The translations under genes and the position numbers were made by a program. A DNA stretch of 31,126 nucleotides from a virus (lineage: Duplodnaviria > Heunggongvirae > Uroviricota > Caudoviricetes). Below the pieces are notes generated by a model. It did not search any database. It was not told the DNA's origin and saw only the letters and a list, made by a program, of their open reading frames with translations. Position 1 is the first letter of the stretch. Each line of letters starts with the position of its first letter. The stretch lies in the IMG/VR virus record IMGVR_UViG_2874968258_000011, one strand, 5' to 3'. Positions 4,339 to 8,096 of the stretch are shown piece by piece.

Positions 4339-4481
4339 ACCCGCTCCAGAATGTTTTAAACATGCATCTTGCGAACAACTTTAGGCAAACGGTGTTAGTG
4401 ATGAACAAAAAACAATCAAAATTGTCAACGCCACGATGTTTGACCGTTATTTGCCATTTTCATGCCCGCTAAATACTTTCG

Positions 4482-4750
4482 TTACTGATGCTGTCCGCTT
4501 TCCACCATTTCATCATCACTGATTGGCGTTGTGTTTTTGGTCAGCACTCCAGCTTTACGTTTCTCTTTTAACCGGTAACTCTCTCCTTTGATATTCAGCG
4601 TGGTTGAGTGATGTAGCAGCCGATCCAGGATCGCTGTTGCCAGTACGTGATCTCCGAACATTTCTCCCCAGTCTGCGAACCCTTTGTTTGACGTCAGTAT
4701 GATGCTCGCTTTTTCATATCGACGGTTCAGTAGCCGGAAGAACAGACTGG
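4482..4750 (-). pseudogene. istB: istB C-terminal fragment (split by IS600)
   Basis: …[24 protein letters not shown]…[15 protein letters not shown] matches IstB C-terminal region; abuts IS600 end. Confidence 0.8.
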
Positions 4751-4793
4751 TGAGGTGTACTGGCAATAGCGGACACTACCATTTGTTCTTTTT

Positions 4794-5612
4794 TTAAGCA
4801 GCCATCTGATGATATTTTTCCCTGAAGGCTGCCGGGGAGATATTCCCCAGACGAGAGTGACGACGCTGACGATTGTAGAAAATCTCAATGTATTCCCGTA
4901 TTACTGAGATGGCTTCATCCCGGTTATTAAAACGATAGTGGCTCAGGCTCTCATTTTTCAGCGTTCCCCAGAAGCTTTCCATCGGAGCGTTGTCGTAACA
5001 GTTACCTTTACGCGACATTGATGTTTTCAGACCAGACTGCTCCTGTATGACCCGGTAATCGTATGCGCAGTACTGTGAACCTCGATCAGAGTGGTGGATT
5101 AGCCCGGCAGGTGGGCGCTGGCTCCTGAGCGCCATAAACAGGGCTTTACCTGTCAGCTCTTTTGTCATGCGCTCTCCCATGGCGTAGCCGACAATTTCGC
5201 ACGTATAAACATCTTTGATGCCAGCGAGGTACAACCATCCCTCCTGTGTGGCAACATACGTCAGGTCCGCCACCCAGACCTGATTTGGTGCTGTAGGAGC
5301 GAACGTCTGGTTCAGCAGATTTGGCGCAACTGGCAGATTGTGGTTCGAGTTCGTAGTCGCTCTGAACTTGCGTTTCTGCTTACAGCGTAGCCTTAGCTCC
5401 TTACGAAGACGTGCCAGTCGGTCACGACCAACGATGATGCCATTCTCTGCCAGCTCCGTCTGGAGCCGCCGGGTTCCATATGTTTCGCGAGTGCGGATAT
5501 GTGCCACCTTAATCTCCAGTTTTAGCCGCTCATCACTTTGTTTTCTGTCTGAGGGTTCATGCTGTACCCAGTTGTAATAACCGCTCCTGGATACACCAAA
5601 TACCTGACACAT
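4794..5612 (-). CDS. IS600 OrfB
   Basis: 272-aa ORF identical to copy 1. Confidence 0.9.
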   Translation of the reverse strand: MCQVFGVSRSGYYNWVQHEPSDRKQSDERLKLEIKVAHIRTRETYGTRRLQTELAENGIIVGRDRLARLRKELRLRCKQKRKFRATTNSNHNLPVAPNLLNQTFAPTAPNQVWVADLTYVATQEGWLYLAGIKDVYTCEIVGYAMGERMTKELTGKALFMALRSQRPPAGLIHHSDRGSQYCAYDYRVIQEQSGLKTSMSRKGNCYDNAPMESFWGTLKNESLSHYRFNNRDEAISVIREYIEIFYNRQRRHSRLGNISPAAFREKYHQMAA

Positions 5613-5647
5613 CGCTTCAATGGGAAATTGTTGTCGCCATTGTTCGA

Positions 5648-5950
5648 TTAACGCGTATTTTTCAGCGACTCCTGTGCAAAATACGCTGTTGCTTTTTTTA
5701 ATATATCTCGCTCAAGGCGAGCTTCATTTAACGCCTTACGCAGTTGCAGAATTTCAGATTCCAGTTCAGCCACCGTGCGGGAACCAGGAGTACCGAGCCC
5801 TTTTCTGGCGGCGGTAACCCATTGTCCTAAAGTGCCTTCAGGAAGAGATAATCGGGAAGCGCCTTCACTGATCGAAAGTTGATTTTCAAGAACCGTTCTG
5901 ACAGCTTCGGCTTTGAACTCTTTAGAGTAACGTTGGGTTTTTCTGCTCAT
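5648..5950 (-). CDS. IS600 OrfA
   Basis: Identical to copy 1 OrfA (L variant). Confidence 0.9.
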   Translation of the reverse strand: MSRKTQRYSKEFKAEAVRTVLENQLSISEGASRLSLPEGTLGQWVTAARKGLGTPGSRTVAELESEILQLRKALNEARLERDILKKATAYFAQESLKNTR

Positions 5951-6014
5951 TATTAGCTCCTTCTGATGCCATTCTATTTCAGGAAGGAGTGTCCGTTAAA
6001 CTCAGGCTACCTCA

Positions 6015-6549
6015 TGGCTTCCTCTCTGTTCATCGGCAGATAGCCTATTTCATCCAGGATCAACACCCGGGCATAACTCAGTTGCTGTAGCTGACGCTCC
6101 AGCCGGTTTTCCTGTTTCGCTTTCATCAGTGTCGCGATCAGTCTGTCCAGTGGCATAAACAGTACCCGATGTCCCGCATCCACCGCTTTCACGCCAAGAG
6201 CTATGGCCAGATGAGTTTTTCCGACACCAGGAGGGCCCAGCAGGATCACGTTTTCGCTGCGCTCCACGAACGCCAGACCAGCCAGTTCCCGGACAACCTT
6301 ACGGTCGATGCCCGGCTGGAAGGTAAAGTCGAACTGCTCCAGCGTTTTGACCCACGGCAGACGAGCCTGCTTCAGCCTGGACTCCATACCGCGCTGATGC
6401 CTGCCGTTCCATTCCTGCTGTAGCGCCATGCACAGGAACTCCCGGTAGTTCAGCTCTTTTTTAGCTGCCTGTTCCAGCAGGCTTTCAACGTGATAACTCA
6501 GATGCTCCATTTTCAGGCGACTCAGCAGGACTTCCAGTTCATGCATCAC
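6015..6549 (-). pseudogene. istB: istB N-terminal fragment (Walker A GPPGVGKT present)
   Basis: 180-aa ORF 6007..6549 whose last codons run into IS600. Confidence 0.8.
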
Positions 6550-7718
6550 AACAGCTCCTCATAGGCACTCAGTGGTCGATGTTCCACCTGACTGACCTGC
6601 TGCCAGAGCGGGGCGTGATGCTCCGGCACTGTCTGCCAGCCAGACGATGCTGAACAGAGGCGATGTGAGGCCACCAGTTTCTCATTACTGTAGATCCGCA
6701 ACTCGTCATCCAGCGATATTCGTATCGATACCGGCTGACCACACAGCGCTTCGGGAACGCTGTAACGATTACCACCAACCTCGATATAGCTGTCCCAGGA
6801 CACATGGCGGATATCGAAGTAACTGGTATCGAAGTCTGTATCCGGTAACGGCTGCAGATGTTCCTGCTCCAGCGCGAAGCGCTGTTCCGGCGTTTCTTTG
6901 AACTGGCGAAGCTCCCGTTTGTCAGCCACATCGGCTATCCATTGCTCCAGTTGTTGATTGACATGAGTGAAGCTGTCGAACCTGCGGTACCGGACGAAGA
7001 AGTTCTCCTTGAGGTATTTCACCATCCGCTCAACCTTACCTTTTGTTCTGGCCCTGCGTGGACGGCATGCCCGTGGCAGGAAGTTATAGTGGTCAGCCAG
7101 CAACAGGAATCCGGAGTTGAACACGACTTTCCCGTTGTTATTCTTCAGCACCGCAGCCTTCTGGTTATCAACCAGCACCGTTTTCACACAACCACCGAAG
7201 TAGCGGAAGGCGCGAACCAGTGATTCGTAGGTATGCTCAGCATCCTGTTTTGGTGCGGCGAAGACATGGAAGCTGCGGGAGAACCCCAGCGTATTAACCG
7301 CAAAGTTAACTTTGCACCGTTGCCCGGCAACCTCCACCTCAACTTCGCCCCAGTCATGCTGGAGCTGGTATCCAGGCTGAGTTTCGAAGCGAACTGTTCT
7401 TTTTGACGGACGCATTTTACGTTTGGGCTGGATGTAGTAACGCAGCATGGAACGTCCGCCCGTATAACCCATTGCCTTAATCTCCGCGAAGATAACCTCG
7501 CTATTCCAGACATTCTCTGCCAGGCGCATGTCGATGTAATCCATAAACGGTTTCAGCTTAACCATTTTGTGGCGGGTCTTTCTGGCTGGCGGTTCAGGGT
7601 ATTTGAGGTAGCGTCTGACCGTCCGTTCAGAGCAACCAATCTGAGTCGCAATATCGACGATGTACGCGCCCTGCTGGCGCATTTGCTTTATCATGTAAAA
7701 GTCCTCTCTGCTCAGCAT
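6546..7718 (-). CDS. istA: IS21-family transposase IstA
   Basis: 390-aa ORF with N-terminal HTH, overlapping istB start. Confidence 0.85.
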   Translation of the reverse strand: MLSREDFYMIKQMRQQGAYIVDIATQIGCSERTVRRYLKYPEPPARKTRHKMVKLKPFMDYIDMRLAENVWNSEVIFAEIKAMGYTGGRSMLRYYIQPKRKMRPSKRTVRFETQPGYQLQHDWGEVEVEVAGQRCKVNFAVNTLGFSRSFHVFAAPKQDAEHTYESLVRAFRYFGGCVKTVLVDNQKAAVLKNNNGKVVFNSGFLLLADHYNFLPRACRPRRARTKGKVERMVKYLKENFFVRYRRFDSFTHVNQQLEQWIADVADKRELRQFKETPEQRFALEQEHLQPLPDTDFDTSYFDIRHVSWDSYIEVGGNRYSVPEALCGQPVSIRISLDDELRIYSNEKLVASHRLCSASSGWQTVPEHHAPLWQQVSQVEHRPLSAYEELL

Positions 7719-8096
7719 GTTGATGTCCTTTCTGGTGTGAGAACCTTAAGGAAACAACATGTTGGGTGGAGCGGACAATCCAAATGGCGAATTACCGTCT
7801 TATATCACTGGCGCTGACAAAATCGACACCATAAAAATAAAACCACTGTAATATCAATCCATTACAGTAGTGGTGATGACGAATGAAATTTCAAAAACTA
7901 GCCTTTTTCCGCGCCGCTCCCGCCCCGTGGCAGGCCACCCCACCGGGAGGACCCGTCAGCCTGACAGCCATGACGAACGTCTGATACAGCGCCCTGCATG
8001 AATGACATCGGGATAATCCAGAAAGGAATAGCATCGTACCCACAAGAATCAGTGTAAGTGTCCTGTTTCTTCCACCCCCGCACAGGACTGGCGAGC

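Follow-up and report, generated by a model that had tools for sequence, protein, structure and literature searches.

How does a lambda-like prophage come to carry one insertion sequence (IS) inside another at the place where its packaging site is expected, and in which order did the two arrive? The question is raised by positions 4423-7819 of a 31,126-nucleotide (nt) stretch of Caudoviricetes DNA (IMG/VR record IMGVR_UViG_2874968258_000011; this whole stretch is referred to here as the window), where an IS21 element interrupted by IS600 lies between the lysis genes and the terminase genes of a prophage remnant. A sequence-only reading of the window had placed the composite between these two gene groups and had described IS600 as nested in istB of an IS21-family element. 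It further held that IS21 arrived first and IS600 later, that the outer element is now immobile, and that the insertion falls where cos is expected, 85 bp upstream of the start of a 'Nu1' gene. We find the placement and the nesting to be correct to the base, and conclude that two successive ordinary transpositions in a Shigella sonnei-type chromosome, IS21 and then IS600 in situ, very probably account for the locus.

IS600 interrupts istB of an IS21 element

Minus-strand open reading frames (ORFs) between positions 4200 and 8100 encode 390 amino acids (aa; 6546-7718), 180 aa (6007-6549), 100 aa (5648-5950), 272 aa (4794-5612) and 94 aa (4482-4766). Profile searches with Pfam and NCBIfam identify the first as IstA, the IS21-family transposase (NF033546, 284 bits with a cut-off of 160). 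The outer element begins with TGTCAACGCCA and finishes with TGGCGCTGACA. Its terminal repeats, which are tipped TG...CA, agree at 10 of 11 positions, and a second GCCATTT block lies about 30 nt inside both ends.

Each of the two elements can be removed on paper without leaving a scar. In-silico excision of 4751-6017, which takes out IS600 and one TGG, yields an element of 2130 bp in which istA encodes 390 aa and istB is a continuous frame of 265 aa, so that the two istB halves do reconstitute the reading frame as had been proposed. The restored IstB is recognized by the IstB equivalog profile NF038214 (302 bits, cut-off 200) and by Pfam IstB_IS21 (E = 2.5e-90). Inspection of intact IS21 copies in four E. 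coli records reveals 0 mismatches to the restored element over 2130 bp; three of these copies are flanked by duplications (GTTG, AACG and CGTT), whereas the remaining one, which is rearranged, has no duplication. One more copy, of 2131 bp, has a 5-bp duplication, TACGC. The exact IstA and restored IstB sequences each occur in more than 1000 recorded contigs under the name 'IS21-like element IS21 family', some of them from Shigella sonnei. A protein look-up did not find the 180-aa, GTG-start version of the IstB fragment on record.

To place the outer element more narrowly, we took as reference the IS21 copy that adjoins aph(3')-Ib on pRP4 (CP152305.1). The restored element is 99.0 % identical to it over 2131 aligned positions, with 21 substitutions and one single-base indel. 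Because of this identity, and because at either end the outermost 30 nt show no difference from the pRP4 copy, the outer element is IS21 itself, which is more than membership of the IS21 family. Likeness to IS21 (= IS8) of the IncP-1 alpha plasmids RP4/R68 extends to length (2130 bp here, 2131 bp there), to IstA, which is one residue apart, and to a 4-bp target duplication in each, ACGT/ACGT in RP4 and AAAT here. What is unlike RP4 is the setting, in that the window copy is chromosomal, lies in the cos region of a prophage and has its istB broken by IS600. Neither the ends nor the duplications depart from the reference on this alignment, and the borders drawn by the sequence-only reading stand.

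The inner element shares 99.8-100 % identity with the five other IS600 copies in the window, and a copy labelled IS600 by NCBI PGAP matches it at 99.9 %. Its orfA matches HTH_Tnp_1 and its orfB matches rve, NF033516 scores 334 bits, the pair is OrfA and OrfB of an IS3-family element, and the overlap between the two frames contains an A7G slippery run. IS600 of Shigella shares the length of 1264 bp, the orfA and orfB genes with an A-run frameshift site and the 3-bp duplication; only the target differs. GAT and CAC are the 3-bp duplications at other IS600 copies in the window. The break in istB follows codon 177. The N-terminal fragment thereby retains Walker A (residues 104-111) and Walker B (162-169), while 88 residues are severed. 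Table 1 collects the coordinates of all features.

Table 1. Features of the IS21::IS600 composite and its surroundings in the window.
Feature	Position	Strand	Remarks
IS21::IS600 composite	4423..7819	-	3397 bp = IS21 2130 bp + IS600 1264 bp + 3-bp duplication
AAAT, left copy of IS21 4-bp target duplication	4419..4422	.	
AAAT, right copy of IS21 target duplication	7820..7823	.	
IS21 right-end segment	4423..4750	-	terminal repeat and 3' part of istB; 100 % identical to intact IS21 copies
IS21 right terminal repeat	4423-4433		TGTCAACGCCA
IS21 left terminal repeat	7809..7819	-	TGTCAGCGCCA read on the minus strand
istA, IS21 transposase	6546..7718	-	390 aa, intact
istB N-terminal fragment	6007..6546	-	179 aa; codons 1-177, then 2 codons into IS600 to a stop
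istB C-terminal fragment	4482..4748	-	codons 178-265 and stop codon; no start of its own
IS600 (IS3 family)	4751..6014	-	1264 bp, intact
IS600 orfA	5648-5950	-	
IS600 orfB	4794-5612	-	
TGG, one copy of IS600 3-bp target duplication	4748..4750	.	
TGG, second copy of IS600 target duplication	6015..6017	.	
Predicted 12-nt cohesive end in cosN	7914..7925	-	GGGCGGGAGCGG; by alignment with lambda
cosQ-like heptamer GGGTCCT	7948..7954	-	22 nt before predicted nick; aligned with lambda right end
Match to integration host factor (IHF) consensus	7852..7864	+	TATCAATCCATTA; a sequence match
Candidate small-terminase binding repeat	7873..7883	-	TTCGTCATCAC; putative, cosN side of insertion
Candidate repeat, second copy	4398..4408	-	TTGTTCATCAC; putative, terS side of insertion
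Small terminase subunit (terS)	3844..4338	-	164 aa; DUF1441 / phrog_141
Large-terminase (terL) stub	3479..3844	-	121 aa; cut by IS600 at 2223-3486
IS1 copies	1115-1880, 14819-15584, 18335-19100		

The unoccupied site and the age of the insertion

To learn whether the phage site exists without the composite, an 800-nt query was built in which the two flanks are joined through a single AAAT. This query matches 1191 E. coli genomes in one uninterrupted piece, and the predicted empty-site junction is present base for base in one of them (L005). A look-up of the 121-aa terL stub led to S. sonnei 53G (HE616528.1), which has the same prophage remnant, as do five similar complete genomes and several drafts. 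At 99.98 % identity, the locus in 53G runs collinear with the window, and its cos is likewise unoccupied, with a single AAAT; its two alignments to the window overlap by the 4-nt duplication and 2 chance-matching nt. The unoccupied site is decisive evidence for insertion, and the AAAT and TGG repeats hold as target duplications of the outer and inner elements.

These comparisons also bear on a different origin of the structure, namely an assembly artefact or a recombination between dispersed insertion sequence copies, with flank repeats that match by coincidence. The window itself lends such an origin some colour, as about 43 % of it (~13.3 of 31.1 kb) consists of insertion sequences and duplications are missing from three of its six IS600 copies, so that recombination between copies does occur there. 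However, excision restores the 2130-bp element without mismatch together with the exact empty phage site, and the joint chance probability of the 4-bp and 3-bp flank matches is about 6e-5. The composite is, moreover, identical over its 3397 bp and has the same flanks in CP044191.1, which is an independent assembly. We regard an artefactual or recombinational origin as highly improbable. CP044191.1 is the only other assembly that was found to carry the composite at cos; it otherwise lacks the IS911 insert described below and differs by one substitution.

The 53G remnant also speaks to the age of the event. In it, terL is already truncated by the IS600, and the IS1, the tail-fibre fragment and the IS600::IS911 pair are in place. 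With this damage present and cos still empty, IS21 therefore came late, in a sublineage, and entered cos when most of terL and all head and tail genes of the prophage were already gone.

How often the composite occurs was approached by scanning for its junctions. Neither the inner junction nor the outer one (cos / IS21 right end) had an exact match in genome and metagenome collections, and a viral collection likewise gave no match to the outer junction or to the other inner junction, istB-N / IS600. Few Shigella genomes are present in these collections, and the scans therefore say little about the frequency of the insertion. Candidate occurrences elsewhere were rejected: six E. coli records matched the nested composite at 92 % coverage, and the four that were opened hold separate, neighbouring IS21 and IS600 copies, while in PLSDB plasmids a junction-spanning query gave two-piece matches only.

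The insertion divides a predicted cos site

The sequence-only reading had expected cos at the insertion and had suggested that cos-like sequence be sought next to it; alignment with lambda locates both cosN-like and cosQ-like sequence there. The lambda cos junction used in the alignment (...ACGGGTCCTTTCCGGTG...ACG/GGGCGGCGACCT/CGCGGG, with slashes at the limits of the cohesive end) aligns with the reverse complement of window positions 7905-7960 (...ACGGGTCCTCCCGGTG...CACG/GGGCGGGAGCGG/CGCGG). The predicted cohesive end is that of lambda at bases 1-6, with the flanking ACG and CGCGG conserved, and differs from it at bases 7, 8, 9, 11 and 12. The heptamer GGGTCCT is that of lambda cosQ, a feature shared with the cos sites of lambda-like phages (lambda, 21, N15 and Gifsy-1). 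The 7-bp cosQ is described as highly conserved (PMC4669245). The record of phage mEp460_4F5 (LR595868) begins no more than 5 nt from the predicted end, and its terS is at 189. A cos placed 25 nt from terS, as the ends of the mEp460 record (JQ182728) seemed to indicate, was rejected, in that this record merely begins at an annotated gene.

Positions in the repaired phage were counted from the predicted left cohesive end. On this scale the terS start codon lies at nt 187, close to the 191 of Nu1 in lambda, and the IS21 insertion point falls between nt 102 and 103, where 60 nt have a G+C content of 27 %. An IHF consensus (TAATGGATTGATA) occupies nt 62-74, at the place of lambda I1. An 11-nt direct repeat, TT(C/G)(G/T)TCATCAC, identical at 9 of 11 positions, flanks the insertion, with copies at nt 43-53 and at nt 117-127. 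This candidate repeat is all that was found in place of lambda-type R sequences, of which there are none here. Going by the lambda arrangement, the candidate repeats and the IHF match may together form cosB. IS21 would then sit about 102 nt into the cosB-equivalent region, with cosQ and cosN on the lysis side. The insertion lies 84 nt (4339-4422) before the terS start codon, in agreement with the 85 bp given by the sequence-only reading. Between cosN and the insertion lies an inverted repeat (7842-7871) with 11-nt arms, ACCACTGTAAT and ATTACAGTAGT, and an 8-nt spacer; it encloses the IHF consensus.

The small terminase itself departs from the lambda model. Its only domain match is DUF1441 (141 bits), and it matches phrog_141, 'terminase small subunit'; comparison with Pfam Phage_Nu1 (PF07471) gave no match, and comparison with the PDB gave none with E < 0.9. 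The label 'Nu1' is thus sound as to function and mistaken as to family.

The site also differs from lambda cos in being split by 3.4 kb. In phages of this kind a deleted or re-positioned cosB makes cosN nicking inefficient and inaccurate (PMC4669245), and for that reason a 3.4-kb insertion should destroy the initiation of packaging. That is to say, cosN and cosQ would now lie 3.4 kb from the terS-proximal part of cosB, a separation that in lambda-type phages would abolish accurate cos cutting. Because terL and the head and tail genes were already lost, the disruption would have had no consequence for phage viability; the prophage was already dead, and the split cos would have cost it nothing.

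Order of the two insertions

The favoured course of events comprises two steps. IS21 would first have entered the AT-rich cos stretch of the prophage remnant and duplicated AAAT, and IS600 would then have entered istB of that IS21, between codons 177 and 178, and duplicated TGG. On IS21 target preference PMC11208146 offers no information. That IS21 came first and IS600 later is the most economical reading of the locus, as the sequence-only reading had it, but the order is not proven. Several points weigh against the account as a whole. An intact IS21 at the cos site was found in no genome, and the intermediate is one that we infer; a second copy with the same junction in CP044191.1 could mean that the composite was copied as a unit; and the assignment of cos rests on sequence similarity and on the start of one database record.

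The second of these points belongs to a rival course of events, in which IS600 entered IS21 elsewhere and the 3397-bp composite moved into cos with its own IstA and with IstB supplied in trans. The AAAT duplication would then date the arrival of the composite, and the order of events given for the cos site would be wrong. Such a move is mechanically conceivable, as both IS21 ends and istA are intact and an intact, identical istB exists in S. sonnei. In CP044191.1 the second copy of the IS21/IS600 junction (in the segment 4735854-4748393, L014) lies in another prophage about 125 kb away. This copy is 3069 bp long and 100 % identical, and it spans the IS21 left end, istA, istB-N and IS600. It lacks istB-C and the right end, however, so no duplication can be checked, and a scan for an IS21 right-end junction at this second site found none.

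A further genome clarifies how the second copy should be read. IMGVR_UViG_2531839193_000006 (L036) has the same second-site structure, with no substitutions over 8 kb, and in both genomes the IS21 at this site sits in a head-tail joining gene (...CATCCGGAGA/TGTCAGCG). The junction between IS600 and istB in L014 is that of the window, while that of L036 is shifted 15 nt deeper into istB; two distinct IS600/istB junctions therefore exist. Gene conversion or assembly homogenisation between two 3-kb repeats is the simplest explanation for the identical junction within CP044191.1, which does not call for transposition of the composite, and the second copy was accordingly downgraded as proof that the unit had moved. 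The E. coli genomes, the plasmids and the genome, metagenome and viral collections yielded no further complete composite. Taken together, we consider movement of the finished composite into cos unlikely, and retain IS21 followed by IS600 in situ as the preferred order.

IS600-in-IS21 nesting recurs at other positions in S. sonnei. The pINV plasmid of S. sonnei CIP_106347 (L043, NZ_CP109776.1 175864-179260) carries a 3397-bp IS21::IS600 with a 3-bp duplication, in which IS600 lies in the 5' part of istA. Like the window copy, the pINV copy and those of the second CP044191.1 prophage and L036 hold IS600 inside IS21. The pINV copy is unlike it in its istA target and in the opposite orientation of IS600, and L036 is unlike it in the junction 15 nt further on and in the deletion of the IS21 right end. 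With istA broken and istB whole, the pINV copy has the reciprocal defect to the window copy and is among the S. sonnei sources of an intact istB that would be available to the composite.

A related nesting was seen in GCA_900448845.1 (UGBG01000002.1; L030-L034). IS21 copies that match the IS21 of the window at 100 % identity stand there at five or more different sites, and each contains the same 1435-bp insert. The insert encodes an IS110-family (DEDD) transposase and breaks IS21 at 1251/1252, towards the end of istA; the downstream flank differs from copy to copy. Either a nested composite has multiplied in this genome, which would favour movement of a composite as a unit, or an IS110-type element specifically targets IS21.

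The position of IS600 within istB admits one more suggestion. At two unrelated sites in the window (4733-4750 and 20365-20385), one in istB and the other in a truncated 138-aa phage ORF, exactly 9 nt separate the motif GCCGGAAGA from the same end of IS600; in L036 the other IS600 end directly abuts GCCGGAAGA. The motif may reflect a target preference of IS600, though the cases are too few to judge. Because the two istB junctions are 15 bp apart and in the same orientation, and because GCCGGAAGA recurs 9 nt from the IS600 end, istB of IS21 could be a local hot spot for IS600 insertion. That it is one, and that the S. sonnei IS21 copies are crippled reciprocally and able to complement each other, we hold to be improbable. 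If true, the composite, though seemingly 'dead', would remain mobilisable, and the disabling of one insertion sequence by another would be systematic.

A non-autonomous element

The IS21 copy at cos has both ends and its transposase gene and lacks the AAA+ helper, and it would move only when given IstB from another copy. IstB is essential for IS21 integration (PMC10122671), and with istB split this copy should therefore be unable to move alone. The earlier description of the element as immobile holds to this extent and goes too far beyond it. Because the ends and istA are intact, the broken part is the diffusible helper IstB alone, and an identical intact istB exists in S. sonnei, the copy is better described as non-autonomous and is not necessarily immobile.

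Insertion sequences across the window

The composite is part of a wider accumulation. The window holds 11 insertion sequence copies (six of IS600, which is the most abundant, three of IS1, and one each of IS911 and IS21). The IS600 that truncates terL, at 2223-3486, has no target duplication (GGC on one side, TTC on the other) and cuts the gene to 121 aa. Beyond it are the IS1 at 1115-1880 and a tail-fibre fragment (201-824), and the intervening segment 1888-2222 has no match in the phage collection. All head genes and most tail genes are thus missing, presumably removed by an IS-mediated deletion. A further IS600 (21991-23254, GAT/GAT) splits a phage replication-initiation gene ('primosomal protein', O-like) into 23252-23968 and 21502-22128, and the IS1 at 18335-19100 directly abuts an IS600 at 19101, with zero bases between them.

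A second nested pair occupies 9845-12360, where an IS600 (CAC/CAC) is broken at 10295-11543 by a 1249-bp IS911 (GTA/GTA) that is 99.9 % identical to copies labelled IS911 by NCBI PGAP. S. sonnei 53G and the window both have the IS911 insert and CP044191.1 lacks it, despite the IS21::IS600 that CP044191.1 and the window have in common. This distribution needs loss, gene conversion or assembly collapse to explain it.

Such a pile-up agrees with what has been described for the host group. The elements that have expanded in every Shigella species include IS600, IS1 and IS911, and the list of twelve insertion sequences for S. sonnei 53G includes IS21; recent insertion sequence activity is highest in S. 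sonnei, where IS600 is highly active (PMC7373316). Because of this expansion and activity, nested insertion sequences in a decaying prophage are to be expected.

Discussion

The locus is a clean but ordinary example of the pile-up of insertion sequences in Shigella genomes, and the event is of a known kind; its importance beyond bookkeeping is little. The occurrence of a lambda-type cosQ and cosN, as predicted here, beside a small terminase of the DUF1441 type helps the annotation of prophages of this sort. The pair of datable insertion events could serve as a marker of an S. sonnei lineage. For the biology of Shigella, the composite adds one more case in which the expansion of insertion sequences erodes prophages and, with them, other insertion sequences.

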